DNA of 64,000 nucleotides from Minisyncoccia bacterium. Its GTDB lineage: Bacteria > Patescibacteriota > Minisyncoccia > Phycocordibacterales > CALRBL01. Below the pieces are notes generated by a model. That model saw only the letters and a program-made list of their open reading frames with translations, was not told the DNA's origin and did no database searches. The translations under genes were made by a program, and so were the position numbers. Below, one piece after another: positions 4,080 to 56,900 of this stretch. The stretch's first letter is position 1; every line of letters starts with the position of its first letter. The stretch lies in assembly GCA_038230075.1 (NCBI GenBank), contig JBBRNV010000004.1, positions 6,047-70,046 of the forward strand. The letters are read 5' to 3'.

Positions 4080-4994
4080 CTAGGCCTTCCATCGGGCAAA
4101 GATACCTGAGGGCAAAAGACGCTTTTTTGGTCCAGATTCTCTAATGGTCAGTTCTCCCGCTTCAATACTTCCCCTGTGGTTTTTCTCTAACACCTTCAAG
4201 TTTTCAGCATATGAAAGCGACGAGTATCCAGCTGAGTATCCGTTTAGAATAAAGAAGAGTGGTTGCTGAGGATGCAAAATATCGAAGCAAGAATCGAGAA
4301 GTGAGAGTAGGTCTTTTTCTATCATCCATGTTTCTTTCTTTGCACCATGTCCAAATGAAGGTGGATCCATAATAATACCGTGATACAGTGCTCCTCTTCG
4401 TTTTTCCCGTTCAACAAACTTTCGCGCATCGTCGAGCATCCATCGAATATCTTTGTCGGAAACATTTGAAGCTTTGGTATTTTCTTTTGCCCATTCAATT
4501 GTTCCTTTTGATGCATCAACATGGGTAACATGTGCGCCGGCTTGAAGTGCAGCAACACTCGCAGCTCCTGTATAGCCAAATAAATTGAGCACCATTACTT
4601 CTTTTCTATTTCCCCCATTCTCACCTGTGGCTAATGCTTTTGAAATAATATCTTTTGTCCACTGCCAATTAGAAAATTGTTCAGGAAAAATACCTGTGTG
4701 TTTAAATGAACTTAATTTAACCACCAAATTCATATCGTTTAAAGAAATAATCCACTCAGGTGGAACTTCTTCTTTCTCTTTATTAAAAAACCATCGTCCC
4801 TTTCCTCCCTCTGGCGACTCAAAAGAAGCGTGTGCATTTTTCCACACCGACTCTGGTTGACTCTTTTTCCACAACGCTTGCGGATCGGGTCGTGCAATAA
4901 CAAAAGACCCATATCGCTCGAGCTTCATTTCATCTCCACTGTCGATAAGTTCATAGTCCTTTTGAGGTGCTGTTTCGAGAATTGATAGATTCAT
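4080..4994 (-). CDS. class I SAM-dependent RNA methyltransferase (RlmI/YwbD-like)
   Basis: SAM-binding VLNLFGYTGAASVAA and catalytic DPPSFG motif. Confidence 0.7.
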   Translation of the reverse strand: MNLSILETAPQKDYELIDSGDEMKLERYGSFVIARPDPQALWKKSQPESVWKNAHASFESPEGGKGRWFFNKEKEEVPPEWIISLNDMNLVVKLSSFKHTGIFPEQFSNWQWTKDIISKALATGENGGNRKEVMVLNLFGYTGAASVAALQAGAHVTHVDASKGTIEWAKENTKASNVSDKDIRWMLDDARKFVEREKRRGALYHGIIMDPPSFGHGAKKETWMIEKDLLSLLDSCFDILHPQQPLFFILNGYSAGYSSLSYAENLKVLEKNHRGSIEAGELTIRESGPKKRLLPSGIFARWKA

Positions 4995-5024: not shown

Positions 5025-6188
5025 GTGATAATTGATTATATGCAAAAGGAATACCGTATCGTGACAAAAATAAGACGATCGTGGAGATCGTTGCTCGACT
5101 ATCTTGAGGAACATGAAAAAGTCGTTTCTTTTCTGATTTTCGTCTTAGGATTCATCTATGATCTTGTTACCCTTCGACGAATCGACCAGACATACGACAT
5201 TGCAGTCTTGGCATTTCACTTAACAGTGGTTAGTGTCAGTATTTTGATTATTCACCTTCAAGAACGAAATCGATACAACACAATTCGAGACACTGACGAA
5301 ATGGTTGAGAAAAGAACTGAACAGCAAACTTGGTTCCACTTCTTCATGCAATTTTCTTTCGGAGGATTATTCAGTAGTTATATGATTTTCTATTCTCAAA
5401 GCGCTACTTTTATTGGTAGCTGGCCATTTCTTATTTTCCTTGTCATTTTATTTATTGGAAATGAGTTTCTTCGAAAACATTATGTAGAACTTACCTTTCA
5501 ATTATCGATTCTTTATTTCTGTCTCTTTTCTTACAGTATTTTTACTATTCCTATTATGTTAGGAAAAATTGGAAAAGGAATATTTATCTTAAGTGGAGTT
5601 ATCAGCCTCGCAGTATTTATTTGTTTCTGTCTTATTTTGACACTCACCTCACCAAGAAGAATTCGACGAGCTGCACTTCCGCTAACTTTAAGTGTATTCG
5701 GAATCTACATTTTCTTTAACTCAGCTTATTTTTTAAACATTATTCCACCTGTTCCGCTTTCACTTAAAGAAATCGGTATATATCATACCGTCATGAAAGA
5801 TGGTGATGGAAACTACAATGTTCAAGGTGAAGACAAAACATTTGTTCAAAATTACTTAGGAGGAAAGCAGACTGTTCATGAAGTTGCCGGAGAGCCTATC
5901 TATGTATTTGCGGCAGTATTTGCTCCAACAAACCTAACAACTCACGTCTCGCACCAATGGTCTAAATATGATGAAAAAACAAAAGAATGGGTGAGGGTTT
6001 CGTCTGTGCGATTTGCCATTCTTGGTGGAAGAGATAACGGATACCGAGGATATTCGTTGATACGAAACGCAACTGACGGAGAGTGGCGAGTTGATGTACT
6101 TACTGATGATGGACTATTAATTGGAAGAAAGAGCTTCACCGTTCAATCGGTTGATGCAGAACCGATTTTAATTAGTGAAGTGAAGTAG
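5025..6188 (+). CDS. polytopic membrane protein with C-terminal soluble domain, unknown function
   Basis: ~7 predicted TM helices in first 240 aa followed by hydrophilic C-terminal domain. Confidence 0.55.
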   Translation: MIIDYMQKEYRIVTKIRRSWRSLLDYLEEHEKVVSFLIFVLGFIYDLVTLRRIDQTYDIAVLAFHLTVVSVSILIIHLQERNRYNTIRDTDEMVEKRTEQQTWFHFFMQFSFGGLFSSYMIFYSQSATFIGSWPFLIFLVILFIGNEFLRKHYVELTFQLSILYFCLFSYSIFTIPIMLGKIGKGIFILSGVISLAVFICFCLILTLTSPRRIRRAALPLTLSVFGIYIFFNSAYFLNIIPPVPLSLKEIGIYHTVMKDGDGNYNVQGEDKTFVQNYLGGKQTVHEVAGEPIYVFAAVFAPTNLTTHVSHQWSKYDEKTKEWVRVSSVRFAILGGRDNGYRGYSLIRNATDGEWRVDVLTDDGLLIGRKSFTVQSVDAEPILISEVK

Positions 6189-41730: not shown

Positions 41731-43977
41731 TTATGCGGCTTTTGCGAGTTCTGCATTCCTTGCAGCTCTTTCTTTAACGGCTTTTTCTTCTTGTGCAACG
41801 ACAAAATCTTTTTGTGGTCTAAATACTTCTTGAATAGTAGTTATTCTATCTGACACAATTCGTTTGTAGTCTTGATCTGATATTGGTTTACCACCAACAA
41901 CCATCATTTCATTCATTTCTTCAGGAAGTCTTCTGATTACATTGTTTGCTGTTCTCATATCTACACCCGTCACAAGCTTCTTTTTTTCTATAGACCAAAG
42001 AATCTTATTAACTACTCGTAGTTGTATTCGTAGTTGACCATTCAAAAACTGTGTCATTACTCTTTGAGCTCGCGGCGATTCAATTTCTTTTAATCTACTA
42101 ATTCGTAACCGAAGTGAATCTATCTCACTCCGTTCTGCTTGTAACAAATCATATGCAGCAGCTGCCATTTTAGGACCATCACCCCCAAGTCTTTCTTCGA
42201 TTAACTTAAAGCGACGGTCTCCCTCTGTTGTAATCTTTTTCCAAACTTCTACTTCAACATTAACAGGGAGTGTCTCAACAAAAGATTCTGTTCCTAATTC
42301 ACGCAACAATTCTGTTGGCATTGGAATAATTTTTCGCTCACCAGGAACAGAAGGACCCGCCGTTGATGGTCCTGAACCTGGGAATGGAATAATGACTGAA
42401 TGCAGAGTTTCAGGAACCACTTCTGTTTCTATTTCTGTAGGAATTTCTTCTGCAAGAATCGGTACAATTTCTTCAGTAGTTAGAGGATCACTCTCAGTTG
42501 TAGTTGACGTAGTTGATATTTCTTCGTTCACAACAACAGGAGCTTCAGGAGCTGAAGTTATAACTGGTCGCTCATTTGTATACTGGGCTTTTAATTCTTG
42601 CCACTTTCGAGTTTTTCCATCAACCTTTCGAATTTTTGTATTTGCCTTATCGAGAACTTTTTGCTGTGTAGCTAAATTCTTTTGTGCATCTTTAAGCGCA
42701 GCTTTTGCTTCTTTGAGTGCAGCTTTCATTTGAACTTTTTGATCTTTCGAAATCAAATTTTTAAGAGCAAGCATTTTCTCTAGTCCATCAATAGTTTCTG
42801 AATGTTCAGCAACCGTTTTTGCATGAGTATCTACCGCTTGTGTAAGATGTTCTTTACTTTCAACCAATTCTGCGTATCCCTTCCCCGCTCTCATGTGTTC
42901 AATCTTTCCGTTGAAACGAGCTGCCATTTTTTGATCAATCGCATCAACAACCGCTTCGAATTTGGCGGCTTGTTGTTCTGTAAGTGCAAGCGCTGCAACA
43001 TGTGTATCTTTTACTGCTTCAATTTTTCGTATTCTACTTTCAAGTTTCATTTCTCTAATTTCATACTGACTAACCAACTGATCTCTCAACTTTCTAAGTG
43101 CAGGAGATGTTGGATTTTCTCCAAGTGTTCCAATGACTCTCTGCTTCTCAGCTTCAAATTTAGCTTTCTCTTGATTTTGTTGATGAGTTAATACTTCAAT
43201 ATCTGCCTTGTGTTGTGTGATCGCTTGTTTTTGACCAAGCAAATCTTTAACAGCAGAACGTCGCTCACCTCCAAACATTTTAGTTCTAAAATTATCCCAT
43301 TTTAATCTTATTGCGCTTTCTGCCTTCCTACTTTCTGCTGGAATTATGTCGGGCACTTCAATATCTGTAGCAATTACTGCGTCTGGTGTTGTTGTTGGAG
43401 TTTCTACCGCAACAAGAGGAATAGGAATAGCGGCTTCATGTATTACTGGAATGGGAACTTCAGCATCAGGGGTTGGTATCTCTGCTTCAGGAATTTCTGC
43501 AGCAGGAGGAGGAGTTTCGAGGATATCAGAAACTGGAGCAACCTCAACGATGGGAGTTTCGGGCGGCAATTCAGAGATAGCAGGAGGAACTTCAGCAACT
43601 GGGGTGTTGGGTACTTCAACAAGAGGAATTTCCGAAACAGCCTCAGATGCTGCCACATCTGGAGTTGGTGGAAATGCAGCATATAGAGTATCCGCAAAAG
43701 TGTCTTCTGATTTCAAATCTTCATTTGGAACCTCTGCGGCAACTTCTGATGGGATTTCCACAGAAACAGGATTTAGAACAATTTTTGCTTCAAATGCAGC
43801 TTTCTCAGCAGTCTCAGCAGTCTCAGCAGCCACTGCATCTGCAGCTCTCTGTTGTTCATTAACTAATTCATTCATAGCAATAACTTGAGGATGTTCTATA
43901 GGCTCAGGAACTACCACCTCTCCCGTTGAATCTGGAGGCAATACTGTGTCATTTAAATTTTTTGGAATATTACTCAT
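41731..43977 (-). CDS. large (748 aa) Pro/Glu/Val-rich repetitive, coiled-coil protein of unknown function
   Basis: N-terminal ~200 aa of (E/A)(V/I)P repeats, central coiled coil, C-terminal globular region; overlaps tkt N gene by 8 nt. Confidence 0.6.
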   Translation of the reverse strand: MSNIPKNLNDTVLPPDSTGEVVVPEPIEHPQVIAMNELVNEQQRAADAVAAETAETAEKAAFEAKIVLNPVSVEIPSEVAAEVPNEDLKSEDTFADTLYAAFPPTPDVAASEAVSEIPLVEVPNTPVAEVPPAISELPPETPIVEVAPVSDILETPPPAAEIPEAEIPTPDAEVPIPVIHEAAIPIPLVAVETPTTTPDAVIATDIEVPDIIPAESRKAESAIRLKWDNFRTKMFGGERRSAVKDLLGQKQAITQHKADIEVLTHQQNQEKAKFEAEKQRVIGTLGENPTSPALRKLRDQLVSQYEIREMKLESRIRKIEAVKDTHVAALALTEQQAAKFEAVVDAIDQKMAARFNGKIEHMRAGKGYAELVESKEHLTQAVDTHAKTVAEHSETIDGLEKMLALKNLISKDQKVQMKAALKEAKAALKDAQKNLATQQKVLDKANTKIRKVDGKTRKWQELKAQYTNERPVITSAPEAPVVVNEEISTTSTTTESDPLTTEEIVPILAEEIPTEIETEVVPETLHSVIIPFPGSGPSTAGPSVPGERKIIPMPTELLRELGTESFVETLPVNVEVEVWKKITTEGDRRFKLIEERLGGDGPKMAAAAYDLLQAERSEIDSLRLRISRLKEIESPRAQRVMTQFLNGQLRIQLRVVNKILWSIEKKKLVTGVDMRTANNVIRRLPEEMNEMMVVGGKPISDQDYKRIVSDRITTIQEVFRPQKDFVVAQEEKAVKERAARNAELAKAA

Positions 43978-44863
43978 GTTCGCTAGTTATTTTACCTTGT
44001 AATGTTCGAAGTTCATTTAATGCCATTATCGCCTGATCTTTACTCGGCGGATTTCCATGCCAATATGGTTTTCGTTCAAATTCATGTACCCCTTTTCCAG
44101 GAATGGTGTGAGCCAAGATAACAACCGGACGATTAAATATTTCTTTGGCCTCTTCAACTGCATTAATAATATCAGTAAAATTGTGTCCATTCACTTCAAT
44201 GACATACCAATTAAATGCGTGCCATTTTTCGTATAATGATTCAAGTGGCATTACATCTTCAGTGAATCCATCAATTTGAATATTGTTTCGATCAACAATT
44301 GCAATTAAATTTCCAAGTTTTTCTTTTCCTGCGAGCATAATGGCTTCCCAATTTTGTCCTTCATTTAATTCTCCATCTCCAAGGAAACAATAGATAAATT
44401 TTCCTGACATTTCTTCAGGATCTTTTTGCGCTTTAGTTTTTTCTCTAATGTCGATTCTATCAGCGAGCGCCATGCCAACTGCTTGTGAGAGCCCTGACCC
44501 AAGCGGACCTGAACTTGTTTCTAAAAATGGAAGCCATTCTCGATGAGGATGCCCTTGAAGACGTGATCCGAACTTTCGAAGTGTCTTTAATTCCTCAACT
44601 GGAAAATATCCAGCATGCGCAAGTGTTGCGTATAAAACAGGGCAGATGTGTCCATTTGAAAGAACGAGTCGATCGCGCTCATCCCACATTGGATTCTTTG
44701 GATCATGTTTTAAAATATGAAAATAGAATGCCGTGAAAATATCTGCCATGCCGAGAGGTCCTGCAGTATGACCTGATCCTGCAGTAACAAGCATTTCAAT
44801 TATTGATTCACGAATATCATTCGCTTTTTGTTCAAGAAACTTTGTATCAGCCTGGGCTATCAT
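43970..44863 (-). CDS. transketolase, N-terminal section (thiamine-diphosphate-binding)
   Basis: GSGHTAGPLGMADI, GDGELNEGQ motifs. Confidence 0.85.
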   Translation of the reverse strand: MIAQADTKFLEQKANDIRESIIEMLVTAGSGHTAGPLGMADIFTAFYFHILKHDPKNPMWDERDRLVLSNGHICPVLYATLAHAGYFPVEELKTLRKFGSRLQGHPHREWLPFLETSSGPLGSGLSQAVGMALADRIDIREKTKAQKDPEEMSGKFIYCFLGDGELNEGQNWEAIMLAGKEKLGNLIAIVDRNNIQIDGFTEDVMPLESLYEKWHAFNWYVIEVNGHNFTDIINAVEEAKEIFNRPVVILAHTIPGKGVHEFERKPYWHGNPPSKDQAIMALNELRTLQGKITSEHE

Positions 44864-44902: not shown

Positions 44903-45664
44903 TTATTTCTCTTTTTTGATCGTTGCTCGTTCAGCTCTCCACGCTTCAATGTCTTTATGATTCCCCGACAATAAAACCGGAGGAACTTTATAGTTCTTTC
45001 CTTTAAATTTCAAAATTTCAGGACGAGTATACACTTCCTTACTTGCCGATCTGTCTTCTTCAAGTGATTCAATGTTTCCAAGCACACCTTCACACTTTCT
45101 TGCCATCGTATCGATAATGATAAGTGCAGGAAGTTCTCCACCTGTTAATACGAAAGGTCCAATTGAAACTTCGACTGCTTTCAAAATAGAAACTACTCGC
45201 GCATCTACTCCTTCGTATCGTCCACAGATAATAACAATGTCGGTATATGTTGAGACAAATGTTTTCGCGACACTTGTTGTAAATTGTTCACCACCAGGAG
45301 AAAGAAAAATGGTTAGTGCTTTTCTTTTTGTTTTCCCTTTTCCAATCTTTGAAAGAATTTTGTCATGTGCTTTTAAGATTGGTTCTGCTTGCATAACCAT
45401 TCCAGGACCTCCTCCATATGGTTTATCGTCAATTCGTAAATAAGGCTTTTCTCTTCCTTTCTGATTTTTTGTTGGCTTTACAAAACTTCGAGGATTATAA
45501 AATGAAACATCGATAATCTTTTGATCGATAGCTCGTTTTATAATTGATTCCTCTAAATAGGAATCAAAGACATTGGGAAAAAGCGTAATCACATGAAAGT
45601 GAAGTTGGGTTTTTGTGGTAAGCACTTTTTTCTTTAGAGAATTTTTTATTGAAACTTTTTTCAT
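44903..45664 (-). CDS. trmD: tRNA (guanine37-N1)-methyltransferase
   Basis: KPYGGGPGMVM SPOUT knot motif; N-terminal ~20-aa extension. Confidence 0.85.
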   Translation of the reverse strand: MKKVSIKNSLKKKVLTTKTQLHFHVITLFPNVFDSYLEESIIKRAIDQKIIDVSFYNPRSFVKPTKNQKGREKPYLRIDDKPYGGGPGMVMQAEPILKAHDKILSKIGKGKTKRKALTIFLSPGGEQFTTSVAKTFVSTYTDIVIICGRYEGVDARVVSILKAVEVSIGPFVLTGGELPALIIIDTMARKCEGVLGNIESLEEDRSASKEVYTRPEILKFKGKNYKVPPVLLSGNHKDIEAWRAERATIKKEK

Positions 45665-45687
45665 TTCTATATATGTATGCTGATACT

Positions 45688-45730
45688 ACACAAAGCAAAG
45701 GGGCGCCGCAACGAATAGTCGGGCGCCCCT
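45688..45730 (-). terminator. rho-independent terminator on minus strand immediately upstream of trmD (ends the GC-rich island transcript)
   Basis: GGGGCGCC(G)-N11-(C)GGCGCCCC hairpin followed by TTTGCTTTGT on minus strand. Confidence 0.6.
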
Positions 45731-45753
45731 CAGGATTCGAAGTGGTATTTGAG

Positions 45754-46143
45754 TCAGGCATGAAAAGCCATATCGAAACTCAAACTCTTCGGTCGTATGA
45801 CCGGAATGCGACAGTCCTCCGGTGGTGGGTCAACCAGAAAAATCTCTCGGGCTGAATACAACAATGCCTCAGACAGAGCAATGCCAACCTCGTTGAGGAT
45901 GACATCGCTTGGAACTTCACGCCGCCGATCACGAGTAAACTCACAAGCGGTGGTAAAGGCCCGATTCGGCGAGAGTAATCCACTTGACTCCACCTCTTGG
46001 AAAAGGAGTAAGCGTACTTTGAGTACGCAATCAGCGCAACTCTCGACGTCGCGCCAACTGACCTCAATGACGTTCACCACACCGAGACAGAGGTTCTCAA
46101 TACCCACAAAGGTGAAACCACGATATTTAACATTTCGATTCAT
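45754..46143 (-). CDS. dubious ORF (129 aa) in 50% GC island; faint RimM C-terminal (PRC-barrel)-like pattern; possibly non-coding
   Basis: G/C-ending codon usage unlike host genes; stop codon 2 codons upstream of ATG; overlapping plus-strand ORF. Confidence 0.2.
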   Translation of the reverse strand: MNRNVKYRGFTFVGIENLCLGVVNVIEVSWRDVESCADCVLKVRLLLFQEVESSGLLSPNRAFTTACEFTRDRRREVPSDVILNEVGIALSEALLYSAREIFLVDPPPEDCRIPVIRPKSLSFDMAFHA

Positions 46144-46238
46144 TTTTTAGGAGCTGGGTTGATGATTGGCTACGAACTGAAGTTCTGGAGACCATTTGGT
46201 TCCAATCGAACTATGCCACAGTTATAGTTTAAAGTAAA

Positions 46239-46278
46239 TATAAAAACGAAAGGGTCCGACATTCACATGTCGGACTCC
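46239..46278 (-). terminator. rho-independent terminator on minus strand after ORF 46300-46650
   Basis: GTCCGACA-tgtgaa-TGTCGGAC hairpin followed by CCTTTCGTTTTTAT. Confidence 0.65.
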
Positions 46279-46299
46279 CTTGTCGATACAGATAGCAAC

Positions 46300-46650
46300 T
46301 CAGAACAATCCAAGTCGAGCAGGTGCTTGCACCTCTTGAATGTTGCGCACGAAAACCAAGCTCGCAGTTTCCATCGTATCCCGCAAGATCTCGATCAAAA
46401 CCTTTGTGATGACATCCGTTGCGGCGCGATCTAAAAAAGCATGTGCTTCATCGTCAATCCCAGCAGTTGCGCTCGTGAAGAGATCAGCGACGTGTCGAAC
46501 TTTTTTTAGTCCCTCAAAAAACAAAAGCCGAGAGCAGAAACGCACAAGTTGTTTGTTGAGACGACAACTTGCATGAACCATGCTCACTTTTCCAAGCTGT
46601 AACGCTCGAATTTCTTCGATATTGAATATGATGTTTGTGCAATGTTTCAT
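46300..46650 (-). CDS. hypothetical 116-aa protein in GC-elevated island (uncertain)
   Basis: ORF with mixed codon usage, bracketed by terminators at 46731-46775 and 46239-46278. Confidence 0.3.
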   Translation of the reverse strand: MKHCTNIIFNIEEIRALQLGKVSMVHASCRLNKQLVRFCSRLLFFEGLKKVRHVADLFTSATAGIDDEAHAFLDRAATDVITKVLIEILRDTMETASLVFVRNIQEVQAPARLGLF

Positions 46651-46730
46651 TGATAAAAATCTAAGATTTGGCTGTAATCACCAGAATGGTAATTTAAGCT
46701 CTGCCAAGAACATAGCATATTAGTAGATAA

Positions 46731-46775
46731 AAATAAAAAGCAGAGTCTACCTAACAGACTCTGCTTTTTATTTTT
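46731..46775. terminator. bidirectional terminator ending the rpsP-KH operon
   Basis: AAAAAGCAGAGTCT-acctaac-AGACTCTGCTTTTT. Confidence 0.7.
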
Positions 46776-46777
46776 AT

Positions 46778-47092
46778 CTAGATCTTCAAATCATCTAATG
46801 CTTCATCAACACTTTTTGTTGTTGATGACGGAGCTGCTCCTCCTTCAGGTTCATTAATCTTCAAATTGATTCGAGCGTTGTTTTTCATTCCAACAACTCG
46901 CAGAAGTGTTCTTATAGCTTTTGCGGTATTTCCCTCTCGTCCGATTATTTTACCCATATCCGCCTGGTCTACCACAAGAGTCATCAGAACTCCCATTTCA
47001 TCAACAGATCGAGTGATTTTCACTTTTTCTGGCTGATCAACCAATGCTTTAACGATGTAATCTAAAAACTGTGTGTCTTGATCTTGCTGCAT
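46778..47092 (-). CDS. KH-domain RNA-binding protein (YlqC/UPF0109-like)
   Basis: KIIGREGNTAKAIRTLL KH motif; canonical position after rpsP. Confidence 0.8.
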   Translation of the reverse strand: MQQDQDTQFLDYIVKALVDQPEKVKITRSVDEMGVLMTLVVDQADMGKIIGREGNTAKAIRTLLRVVGMKNNARINLKINEPEGGAAPSSTTKSVDEALDDLKI

Positions 47093-47154: not shown

Positions 47155-47191
47155 CCCAAAGAAAAAACTCTTTATTTCTAAAGAGTTTTTT
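47155..47191 (-). terminator. A/T-rich hairpin between rpsP and KH gene (attenuator or weak terminator)
   Basis: AAAAAACTCTTTA-gaaa-TAAAGAGTTTTTT. Confidence 0.35.
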
Positions 47192-47206
47192 CTTTTATTT
47201 GATAGA

Positions 47207-47647
47207 TTATACTGTTGGAGTTTCTTCTGCAGGAGCGGCTTGGGCTGCTGGAGCTTCAACAACTTCAGGAGTAGGTACTGCAACGGGTGTAACAACCTCA
47301 ACTGGTGCGACAACTTCAGGTGCTGCTGCAGGTGCAGCTACTACTTCTACCGGAGCTACTTCTTCTTTCTTTGGAACTGTTTTCTTTGGAAGAACATTTA
47401 CTTTCTTTCCTGTAATAATTTTTTGTGACAATAGTAAGTTGTGAAGAGTTCCTGATGCCTTTGCTCCAACTGAAAGCCAGTGCTTAACTCGGTCAGCTTT
47501 GATCTGAGTTGTTTCCTTTCGTGGATCATATGAGCCAAGAACTTCTAAAAACTTTCCACTTTTTGAGCTGTTTTTTGAATCAGTCAAAACAACACGAAAT
47601 GTAGTTTCGTGCTTTCGTCCTGTTCGTTGTAGTCGAATTGATAACAT
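47207..47647 (-). CDS. rpsP: 30S ribosomal protein S16 with Ala/Pro/Glu/Val-rich C-terminal extension
   Basis: MLSIRLQRTGRKHETTFRVV... canonical S16 N-terminus. Confidence 0.85.
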   Translation of the reverse strand: MLSIRLQRTGRKHETTFRVVLTDSKNSSKSGKFLEVLGSYDPRKETTQIKADRVKHWLSVGAKASGTLHNLLLSQKIITGKKVNVLPKKTVPKKEEVAPVEVVAAPAAAPEVVAPVEVVTPVAVPTPEVVEAPAAQAAPAEETPTV

Positions 47648-49724: not shown

Positions 49725-49760
49725 TAAATAAAATGAAACGCCCCGATTTTATTCGGGGCG
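49725..49760 (-). terminator. rho-independent terminator after GC-rich ORF 49780-50304 (minus strand)
   Basis: CGCCCCG-aataaaa-CGGGGCG followed by TTTCATTTTATTT on minus strand. Confidence 0.6.
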
Positions 49761-49779
49761 CTGGTGGAGAATACCACCA

Positions 49780-50304
49780 TCATTCTGCGACTGGGTCGCC
49801 ATCGAGATCGATCACTTGCTTACTATACTTTTCAGCAAGTGTGATGACCTGAAGAACCAGTTCTGAGTTCCTCGCGTCAGGCATGATCAGCACACCTGAA
49901 GTTTTTCTAATGATCACGTCGTGAACCTTTTCACGAGCTCCCGTGAGCCATGTCGGCAAACGTGAATGACCACGACGCGTCTGATTGTTTGCGAACTCCA
50001 TCGAACCTAGCGCGTTGAAGAATGGTCGCATGTCGAGCACGTACATGGTTTGGCGAAGATGTTCCAATACATTTGCGTACATAACCTCATCTGCCAAAGG
50101 AAGGATGCAATCTTGGTGACACATTTGAACCTCACCGTAGAGGGCAAAGAGTCGTTTTTCGGGAGCCGCGCGCAGCATTGCGCTTACCAGACTCGTCGCG
50201 ACCGGCATAAGATGCTGAGGTTCGCGGGCGGCAGCCAACAGTGTTTGAAATTGATCCGACCAAAACTGATTGATGTGTGTGGTAAGAACTGGAACTAAAC
50301 TCAT
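49780..50304 (-). CDS. hypothetical 174-aa protein encoded in a ~50% GC island (candidate horizontally acquired ORFan)
   Basis: ORF with G/C-rich codon usage, own promoter-like TTGACT-N16-TAGACT upstream and own terminator. Confidence 0.5.
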   Translation of the reverse strand: MSLVPVLTTHINQFWSDQFQTLLAAAREPQHLMPVATSLVSAMLRAAPEKRLFALYGEVQMCHQDCILPLADEVMYANVLEHLRQTMYVLDMRPFFNALGSMEFANNQTRRGHSRLPTWLTGAREKVHDVIIRKTSGVLIMPDARNSELVLQVITLAEKYSKQVIDLDGDPVAE

Positions 50305-50413
50305 TTGAGGTGGTGATATCTCCGGTGTGGGGTTAACTGAACGTAGAGCTATGGAACTTCTAACAACTAGTCTATCTATATTTACATCTTAGTCAAAAAA
50401 GAAATAACTGATG

Positions 50414-56516: not shown

Positions 56517-56517
56517 A

Positions 56518-56900
56518 AAGCTTCTGAGTCTATAAGCCGAATTCTGTAATCATATTCGTTTCCAAATATGATCGGAACGTATTTATCTGTGTTGTGTATT
56601 ACTACACACATCAAGCGGCACTCTCTCTTTTTTACTTTCGCAAAAAAGAGAGTACGGCCTTGCACAGAAGTAAGGATTTTGCCGTTTCACTTTCACCTTT
56701 CGATGAAATTCATCATATCTTACGATACGATGCAGTTGGCTTTCGCCTTCTGCGTCACTGCTCGCACCTCTTGGATTACCCAGACGGGCGTTACCCGCTA
56801 CTTGTGTCTCTCACATTTCTGTAAAAGACTCTGTGTTCGGACTTTCCTCCCCTTCACATTACACGTGGTTATGTGAAAGAGCACGTACCCAACTCAGGTC
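56518..56900 (-). ncRNA. rnpB: RNase P RNA, bacterial type A
   Basis: On minus strand: GGGGAGGAAAGTCCGAACACAGAG (P4 5' strand), GGGTAACGCCCG, AGAAGGCGAAAGCC, and ACAGAATTCGGCTTATAG (P4 3' strand ACAGAAnnCGGCUUA); P1 pairing CCTGAGT/ACTCAG. Confidence 0.85.

Follow-up and report, generated by a model that had tools for sequence, protein, structure and literature searches.

RimM is a 16S rRNA processing protein that combines a RimM N-terminal domain (PF01782) with a PRC barrel (PF05239/PF24986). In two Firmicutes loci included in our comparison (L040 and L041), its gene lies between a KH-domain gene and trmD. The initial annotation of the locus studied here took the order rpsP, KH gene, rimM, trmD as conserved, and proposed that a GC-rich island had replaced rimM. 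Acquired and orphan genes are usually AT-richer than their host. Regulators of the MurR/RpiR type consist of an HTH_6 DNA-binding domain and a SIS sugar-phosphate-binding domain. As for rimM itself, the gene has been reported missing in most CPR genomes (PMC6744442, PMC12641178).

The comparison of 79 related Patescibacteria loci showed that the premise of a conserved synteny is wrong for this phylum: none of them (0/79) carries rimM at the KH-trmD junction, and the slot is usually nearly empty. The gap is 150 bp or less in 32 of the 79 loci. Among the closest relatives, 12-120 bp (12 bp in the closest one) separate the KH gene from trmD, and therefore the island does not replace anything. In other genomes, the slot hosts assorted cargo (CYTH, NUDIX, NADAR, MazF-like, Trp-repressor-like and 2OG-oxygenase genes), and the 33 gaps that exceed 300 bp are on average GC-poorer than the locus in which they lie (gap GC minus locus GC: mean -0.046, maximum +0.02). 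In genomes the best TrmD identity was 67%, and in metagenomes it was 63%; none of these relatives has the island, which is absent from all the related loci considered (160/160).

In the window, i.e. the whole 64-kb stretch of DNA that was analysed, the gene order on the minus strand is rpsP (47647-47207), a khpA-type KH-domain gene (47092-46778; Pfam KH_KhpA-B, E 1.4e-19), the island, and trmD (45664-44903; Pfam tRNA_m1G_MT, E 3.6e-36), in agreement with the initial annotation. The first ~20 codons of trmD are not conserved among relatives, and tblastn matches begin at residue ~21. The segment between khpA and trmD is 1.1 kb long and holds two minus-strand ORFs, ORF116 and ORF129. Its GC-rich character was also confirmed: the 400-nt window at 45691 has the highest GC of the 64 kb (0.527, ~4.5 sd above the mean of 0.384, sd 0.032), and 200-nt windows range between 0.50 and 0.535 over 45700-46100 and between 0.44 and 0.50 over 46200-46600. 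The island is composed of two GC-rich segments (45698-46145, GC 0.507, and 46252-46650, GC 0.459) divided by a spacer (46146-46251, GC 0.368), and stands 12-15 GC points above the host. In its dinucleotide signature the island is ordinary (rank 409-587 of 630 windows), and this was counted against its being a foreign cassette.

Three hairpins, all with their U-runs on the minus strand, are present where they had been placed at first. An AT-rich hairpin with a perfect 25-bp stem (46724-46780, minus strand; -34.3 kcal/mol, z -9.0) overlaps the khpA stop codon and forms the right-hand boundary of the insertion; because T-runs flank it on both sides, it is terminator-like in either direction. The intrinsic terminator of ORF116 (minus strand, stem 46252-46280, U-run 46240-46251; -24.3 kcal/mol, z -5.6) begins 20 nt past the stop codon and ranks in the top two of the terminator-like sites in 20 kb. 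The GC-rich intrinsic terminator of ORF129 (45686-45735, minus strand, hairpin ~45698-45731; -27.2 kcal/mol, z -4.3), which reads GGGGCGCC...GGCGCCCC and then UUUGCUUUGUGU, is located ~20 nt past the stop codon and directly upstream of trmD, and its plus-strand fold is weaker. The terminators of the two ORFs have GC-rich stems, whereas the stems of host hairpins are AT-rich. As judged by eye, the hairpins are 28-38 nt long, are mutually unrelated, and are followed by U-runs. Integron gene cassettes are recognised by attC sites, imperfect palindromes of at least 55 nt carrying RYYYAAC/GTTRRRY cores, together with an integrase close by. A stretch of 14 nt in the ORF129 terminator that is complementary to ORF116 was set aside, as ~0.2 such matches are expected by chance according to our own estimate.

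The promoter proposed in the initial annotation fared less well. The weak sigma-70-like motif TTTACT-N17-TGgCATAGT (46210-46238, minus strand) can indeed be read from the sequence, with TTTACT at 46238-46233 and CATAGT at 46215-46210, ~65 nt upstream of the ATG of ORF129; however, just 8 of its 12 positions agree with the consensus, and the promoter scan scores it below threshold. The evidence for a putative promoter in the island is weak, and was counted against the cassette reading.

ORF116 (46300-46650, minus strand, 45% GC) encodes a 116-aa orphan with an ATG start and a TGA stop, and ORF129 (45754-46143, minus strand, 50% GC) a 129-aa orphan, whose ATG is preceded at two codons by a TAA, as had been noted. 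In the host genes, GC at codon positions 1/2/3 is 0.54/0.36/0.26 (GC3 estimated separately at 0.27 +/- 0.07). The corresponding values are 0.55/0.35/0.45 for ORF116 and 0.59/0.40/0.50 for ORF129, that is, positions 1 and 2 are host-like and GC3 is 0.45-0.50. Base use follows the same pattern, with position 1 G-rich and T-poor and position 2 G-poor as in the host, and position 3 near uniform. The open run is longer than in shuffled sequences (P=0.006 for ORF116, P=0.03 for ORF129). A coding test based on positions 1 and 2, and thus independent of GC3, was significant against fully open shuffled frames (P<0.0025 for ORF116, P=0.007 for ORF129) and ranked the ORF frame best of six for both ORFs; in this test the trmD and KH controls came out positive and the RNase P control negative. 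On these grounds the view that the island contains only dubious ORFs had to be abandoned, and both minus-strand ORFs are most likely protein-coding genes, as predicted from their codon signature.

The arrangement of the two ORFs points in the same direction. Each of them opens at the 5' limit of its own GC-rich segment and stops 19-20 nt before a terminator on the same strand, and for this reason they look like whole transcription units more than like chance fragments. Some features were counted on the opposite side. The coding score of ORF129 (-0.005) is nearly equal to that of the in-phase antisense frame (-0.037), which argues against coding, and the content of Cys and Arg is high in both ORFs, which argues against functional genes, a high content of these residues being a tendency of unselected sequence. 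The Shine-Dalgarno sequence is uninformative on translation, because the host genes do without it (1/32). In addition, ORF116 and ORF129 are in one frame over 299 codons, broken by three stops. UGA recoding across this shared frame was considered and dropped, since TAA accounts for two of these three stops. Likewise, a type II toxin-antitoxin pair was rejected, considering that between the ORFs there are a strong terminator and a spacer of 156 nt, and that no Pfam or PADLOC match was found.

Searches for homologues of the ORFs returned the ORFs themselves. In a word-indexed search of 5.8 billion protein clusters, ORF116 and ORF129 each gave only a self match, and so did ORF116 in an exhaustive HMMER search of 1.84 billion representatives. 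No match to ORF129 was found in Pfam, NCBIfam, PHROG, PADLOC or PDB. More generally, all five island ORFs and the stop-joined 298-aa frame gave nothing in Pfam, NCBIfam, PHROGs and PADLOC beyond a faint RpiR signal, and a PDB sequence search with the island ORFs gave no match. Phage and plasmid collections (blastn/tblastn) and IMG/VR scans yielded neither a match nor a donor, and blastn, tblastx and nhmmer searches of the 64-kb window and 160 related loci recovered only the island itself. The AF2 single-sequence models (helical, pLDDT 52, for ORF116; pLDDT 40 for ORF129) were too low in confidence for a fold search. The lack of homologues and the low AF2 confidence were counted against the cassette reading.

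The faint signal concerns ORF116, which scores 20.1 bits against a MurR/RpiR model of NCBIfam (cutoff 378; model positions 54-133 of 293) and E 0.025 in BLASTP against E. coli AlsR. In hhalign against a four-sequence MurR/RpiR profile the probability is 9%, and 0.2% for ORF129. The possibility that the shared frame of 299 codons is a single pseudogenised rpiR-like gene was dropped, given this profile probability for the first half and the lack of SIS similarity in the second.

A second GC-rich island of the same kind and the same architecture is located ~3 kb from the first, between rnr and lepA (49737-50396, minus strand). It comprises a promoter-like TTGACT-16-TAGACT (50396-50369, minus strand), ORF174, a 174-aa orphan (49780-50304, minus strand) with GC at positions 1/2/3 of 0.62/0.37/0.51, and a GC-rich terminator (49737-49762, minus strand). 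ORF174 is significant in the coding test (P<0.006) and, like the other two, had only a self match among the 5.8 billion protein clusters, so that ORF116, ORF129 and ORF174 are all singleton protein clusters. No ends or motifs are shared between the two islands, or between the halves of the main island.

Our preferred reading, held with moderate confidence, is that the island consists of two small predicted protein-coding cassettes of foreign composition, each with its own terminator, which are specific to this lineage. The inserted cassette is the only one of the options offered by the initial annotation that survived, and is favoured by the deviation in GC and GC3, the absence from relatives, the GC-rich terminators and the second island. 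As the composition of synonymous sites is foreign, recent horizontal transfer is most likely, and the island is most likely a set of recently acquired orphan gene cassettes. ORF116 and ORF129 would have come from an unsampled donor of ~50% GC, and the intergenic slot that received them holds almost nothing in close relatives and assorted accessory genes in others. The two genes would presently be expressed, and three terminators would now lie between the rpsP-khpA transcript and trmD, so that transcription of trmD would require either read-through or its own promoter. No mobility signature (integrase, transposase, tRNA or flanking repeats) was found, repeats being at chance level only; the neighbouring genes up to 5 kb away on either side have housekeeping roles or are unknown, and there is no integrase among those called.

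It appears unlikely, even if the idea deserves serious consideration, that the island is non-functional foreign DNA, made of gene fragments or decaying remains from a GC-richer donor and giving no useful product, in which codon periodicity persists and the frames are still open owing to their recent arrival. The absence of homologues and the low pLDDT values would be easily accommodated, as would the high Cys and Arg content, the frame shared across three stops, and the partial resemblance of ORF116 to the HTH-linker region of MurR/RpiR regulators with the rest of such a protein missing. However, decaying DNA would not be expected to show ORFs that each fit the edge of a GC segment and a terminator ~20 nt after the stop, nor open frames exceeding chance length. 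Moreover, the RpiR match does not reach a SIS domain when ORF116 and ORF129 are joined, and ORF174 is a third, longer intact ORF of the same kind.

It is improbable that one or both segments are a novel structured RNA ending at the hairpins, the ORFs being a by-product of the scarcity of stops in GC-rich DNA. Such an RNA was suggested by the occurrence of GC-rich segments with strong terminators at their ends in an AT-rich genome, and by the long ORFs on both strands of segment 45740-46145. When folded on the minus strand without terminators, this segment has a z of -2.3 (second value -1.7), which is comparable with the coding controls (these run from -2.1, the value of the KH gene, to +1.5), and segment 46285-46655 has +0.66 (second value +1.39); for neither of the GC-rich segments is the fold clearly more stable than in shuffled sequence. 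An Rfam cmscan with permissive filters (E<=10) gave spurious hairpin matches at 46712-46827 and none inside the GC-rich segments. Both segments show significant codon periodicity, which the RNase P control does not, and the RNase P RNA of the genome itself (56517-56898), invoked to show that RNAs are GC-rich here, has only 43.5% GC. A GC-rich, ORF-poor element next to trmD in the relative L013 (z -4.9, no Rfam match) indicates that RNAs of similar look, outside known families, exist in the group, but the island has no sequence similarity to it.

Equally doubtful is the reading that ORF116, ORF129 and ORF174, each with its own GC-rich terminator and dispersed among housekeeping genes, stem from recent gene flow into this small episymbiotic-type genome from a GC-richer partner, such as the host organism or a host-associated virus, and might encode small proteins not seen before that act in this interaction. 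Less likely still would be a second role of segment 45698-46145 as a new structured RNA.

An assembly or binning artefact, in which foreign reads were joined into the contig, is very improbable. The compositional jump is sharp, the genome is metagenome-derived, and independent contigs break within ORF116 (46442-46456). However, two contigs from a separate assembly of SRR19962015 are 100% identical over 50092-46442 and 46456-40010, reproducing the sequence independently and spanning the junctions of khpA, ORF116/ORF129 and trmD as well as part of the second island; furthermore, both flanks are syntenic neighbours in relatives, and a chimeric join would not restore synteny. Finally, the proposal that ORF129 (or ORF116) is a highly divergent RimM in its ancestral slot, for which position alone would speak, as in L040 and L041, is effectively refuted by sequence comparison, because neither ORF matches Pfam RimM, PRC_RimM or PRC at E<=10 (on the RimM/PRC models the genuine L040 RimM scores 6e-22, 2e-15 and 3e-12), the hhalign probability against a RimM profile built from 19 sequences is 0.9% for ORF129, which dispels the faint PRC-barrel pattern once seen in it, and 0.3% for ORF116, the invariant motif HG..GE...P is absent from both, a GC3 of 0.50 would be unexpected in a vertically inherited gene, and rimM is absent from this slot in the Patescibacteria compared, where closest relatives have a nearly closed gap, and reported nearly absent from CPR.

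The gene order rpsP, KH gene, rimM, trmD is thus not to be assumed in Patescibacteria, in which the junction of the KH gene and trmD is a variable slot, and high GC in one block of an AT-rich genome does not, alone, point to a structured RNA. Should the cassettes be functional, they would add three proteins without relatives and uncouple trmD from the rpsP transcript, and they could mark recent horizontal transfer into this lineage. Orphan cassettes are ordinary for such genomes, and current understanding is unchanged.

In relation to known systems, the island resembles a rimM locus in map position only, between a KH-domain gene and trmD as in Firmicutes; the products of ORF116 and ORF129 are unrelated to RimM, the ORFs showing no sequence or profile similarity and a foreign composition, and the slot is devoid of rimM across related Patescibacteria. 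With RNAs of the RNase P, tmRNA, OLE, ROOL or GOLLD type, the island shares the appearance of a GC-rich block bounded by hairpins and set between conserved genes of an AT-rich genome, but it has neither a covariance-model match nor a clear excess of folding energy, and it shows codon periodicity. The likeness to MurR/RpiR regulators, seen with two NCBIfam models, E. coli AlsR and the four-sequence profile, consists in a weak alignment of residues ~34-106 of ORF116 with the end of the HTH domain and the inter-domain linker (VRFC..L.F.G, D..DV..KV); however, ORF116 has no Pfam HTH_6 match and lacks the first ~35 HTH residues, and the SIS domain is absent from ORF116, ORF129 and their concatenation. 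From ORFan islets the island differs in that its genes are 10-15 points GC-richer than the host, whereas typical acquired genes are AT-richer, and in the lack of mobility genes, tRNA, flanking repeats and a deviant dinucleotide signature. Like them, it has no detectable homologues and is absent from relatives, and it shares with them a deviation in both GC and GC3, self-contained transcription signals and a position in a variable slot.

We favour, with modest confidence, the reading that the main island, the GC-rich segment of about 1 kb between the KH-protein gene khpA and trmD, consists of two orphan protein-coding cassettes, each with a terminator of its own and foreign in composition, that sit in a variable intergenic slot. 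All genes of the region lie on the minus strand. rpsP (47647..47207) is followed by an AT-rich 17-bp hairpin with flanking A and T runs (47158-47195), by the KhpA-type KH gene (47092..46778), and by a perfect 25-bp hairpin (46724-46780) that overlaps the KH stop codon. Then comes ORF116 (116 aa; 46650..46300), whose terminator has its stem at 46252-46280, followed by a U-run. An AT-rich spacer of about 100 nt leads to ORF129 (129 aa; 46143..45754), whose GC-rich terminator (stem about 45698-45731, followed by UUUGCUUUGUGU) precedes trmD (45664..44903). The three bracketing hairpins proposed in the initial annotation were all found; they fold strongly (-34.3 kcal/mol, z -9.0 at 46724-46780; -24.3 kcal/mol, z -5.6 at 46252-46280; -27.2 kcal/mol, z -4.3 at 45698-45731), and the orientation of each is that of a minus-strand terminator. 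A plausible consequence of the island would be that three predicted terminators now stand between the rpsP-khpA transcript and trmD. It should be noted that, as the hairpin at 47158-47195 indicates, even the conserved neighbours rpsP and the KH gene are set apart by terminator-like hairpins in this genome.

A TAA does lie two codons ahead of the ORF129 start codon. The promoter-like TTTACT-N17-TGgCATAGT also exists, in the spacer on the minus strand, but it is weak (8 of 12 positions) and went unreported by a promoter scan. ORF116 and ORF129 share a reading frame by chance, with three stops (TGA, TAA, TAA) between them.

The high GC content was borne out as the strongest composition anomaly in the window. 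GC peaks at 0.53 (200-nt windows), and of all 400-nt windows in the 64 kb (mean 0.384, sd 0.032) the one beginning at 45691 is the richest, at 0.527. The two blocks, 45698-46145 and 46252-46650, have a GC of 0.507 and 0.459, and the spacer between them 0.368. GC at codon position 3 (GC3) is 0.27 +/- 0.07 in host genes and 0.45-0.50, about 3 sd higher, in the island ORFs; terminator stems are GC-rich in the cassettes, whereas those of host hairpins are AT-rich.

Where only dubious ORFs had been suspected, both minus-strand frames carry a coding signature. GC at codon positions 1/2/3 is 0.59/0.40/0.50 in ORF129 and 0.55/0.35/0.45 in ORF116, compared with 0.54/0.36/0.26 in host genes; base use in the two ORFs is host-like at positions 1 and 2 and almost uniform at position 3. 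When scored from positions 1 and 2 alone, the ORF frame ranks above the other five in each segment; against a null of fully open shuffled frames, P is 0.007 for ORF129 and <0.0025 for ORF116. Among the controls, trmD and the KH gene behave like the ORFs, and the RNase P RNA does not. The open frames are also longer than those of shuffled sequence (P=0.03 for ORF129, 0.006 for ORF116), and each stop codon lies 19-20 nt ahead of a terminator on its own strand. The in-phase antisense frame of ORF129 scores almost equally. It would encode a Ser/Thr/Arg-rich string of the kind that antisense translation typically yields, and the way the terminators face speaks for the minus strand. The coding evidence for both ORFs agrees across tests. 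The main rival, in which this DNA no longer has any function, we regard as unlikely.

Structure prediction (AF2) without an alignment gave pLDDT 40 for ORF129 and 52 for ORF116, the latter as a helical hairpin. The sole functional lead is that residues ~34-106 of ORF116 faintly resemble, in collinear order, the HTH end and linker of MurR/RpiR regulators (NCBIfam E 2.6e-4, 20 bits, cutoff 378; E. coli AlsR by BLASTP, E 0.025; four E. coli MurR/RpiR paralogs by hhalign, probability 9%). Since the similarity extends into neither ORF129 nor the joined frame, we take it as unconfirmed. A toxin-antitoxin pair is unlikely, considering that ORF116 and ORF129 are set apart by a terminator and a 156-nt spacer and match no defence or toxin-antitoxin model.

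Of the three origins first proposed, an inserted cassette is the best explanation. A novel structured RNA is possible, though improbable: the Rfam comparison suggested for it returned no family within the island even at E<=10. The GC-rich segments, folded on the minus strand without terminators, gave z -2.3 and +0.66 (coding controls -2.1 to +1.5). The genome's RNase P RNA (bacterial class A; 56517-56898, minus strand; E 3.5e-25) has a GC of only 43.5%; its score of 87.6 bits falls short of the Rfam gathering score (100), and it is therefore missed by default Rfam annotation.

A divergent rimM is effectively excluded: the proposed profile comparison, run with hhalign against 19 RimM sequences, gave no match (probability 0.9% for ORF129, 0.3% for ORF116), neither ORF has a RimM or PRC domain in Pfam, and the slot lacks rimM in the Patescibacteria loci compared. 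For this comparison, 160 loci with a gene for a TrmD relative were taken from genomes and metagenomes; the best TrmD identity was only 67%, so that the lineage is thinly sampled. Of the 79 Patescibacteria loci in which the KH gene and trmD both occur, 32 have a gap of <=150 bp (12 bp in the closest relative), 23 one of 150-450 bp, 16 one of 450-800 bp and eight one of >800 bp. Filled slots hold mutually unrelated cargo (CYTH, NUDIX, NADAR, a MazF-like toxin, a Trp-repressor-like protein, a 2OG-Fe(II) oxygenase, orphans), and among the fetched loci rimM occupies the slot only in Firmicutes. Two papers describe rimM as lacking from most Patescibacteria (CPR) genomes or as nearly absent there (PMC6744442, PMC12641178). 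Given a variable slot and a phylum-wide loss, nothing was replaced here, contrary to the initial annotation.

The island DNA was probably acquired recently from a donor of ~50% GC. This fits the high GC3, the GC-rich terminators, the lack of comparably GC-rich gaps in relatives (in 33 Patescibacteria KH-trmD gaps >300 bp, gap GC never exceeds locus GC by >0.02), and a similar second island at 49737-50396, between rnr and lepA (GC up to 0.537, 300-nt windows). The latter has the same build: its 174-aa ORF on the minus strand (GC at positions 1/2/3 0.62/0.37/0.51) is an orphan that matched only itself in 5.8 billion protein clusters, its terminator (49737-49762) is GC-rich, and it has a TTGACT-16-TAGACT that is promoter-like. 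Weighing against a simple acquisition, the dinucleotide signature of the main island is not deviant, neither mobility genes nor a tRNA nor flanking repeats were found around it, and the protein, phage, plasmid and viral collections searched gave no donor or homolog. An assembly artefact is effectively excluded, because run SRR19962015, assembled separately, yielded two contigs that match the window with 100% identity at 50092-46442 and 46456-40010 and cover every main-island junction, the first also part of the second island; their sole break, a 15-nt overlap (46442-46456), is inside ORF116.

Shine-Dalgarno sequences are nearly absent upstream of host genes (1/32), and a TAnnnT motif starts 10-15 nt upstream of the ATG in 13/43 long ORFs (9.4% at random positions), suggesting that leaderless or very short-leader mRNAs may be common in the host. 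Transketolase is split, in the window (41731-44863) as in the related locus L001, between separate genes for its N-terminal part (43970-44863) and its C-terminal part. A 93-aa ORF and a 748-aa protein (41731-43977) with no Pfam match come in between, the latter with an N-terminal half that is GC-rich and Ala/Pro/Glu/Val-rich.

In locus L013 (TrmD 54% identical), a block of ~470 nt (4300-4800, plus strand; identical in L104 at 5030-5530) lies ~350 nt downstream of trmD, with 49% GC in a 35% GC genome. On the trmD strand it folds with z -4.9 and has a clear terminator at its end. It has no coding-like ORF, Rfam match or similarity to the window island, and may be an undescribed structured RNA. 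GC-rich accessory genes also occur in AT-rich genomes at two related Patescibacteria loci (L023 7039-7569 and L002 2503-3567): one ORF (176 aa, GC3 0.59 in a 36% GC locus) is NUDIX-hydrolase-like by eye, and the other (354 aa) has an apparent signal peptide. Insertions of GC-rich DNA may recur across the group. For genomes of this kind, the island is nothing out of the ordinary.
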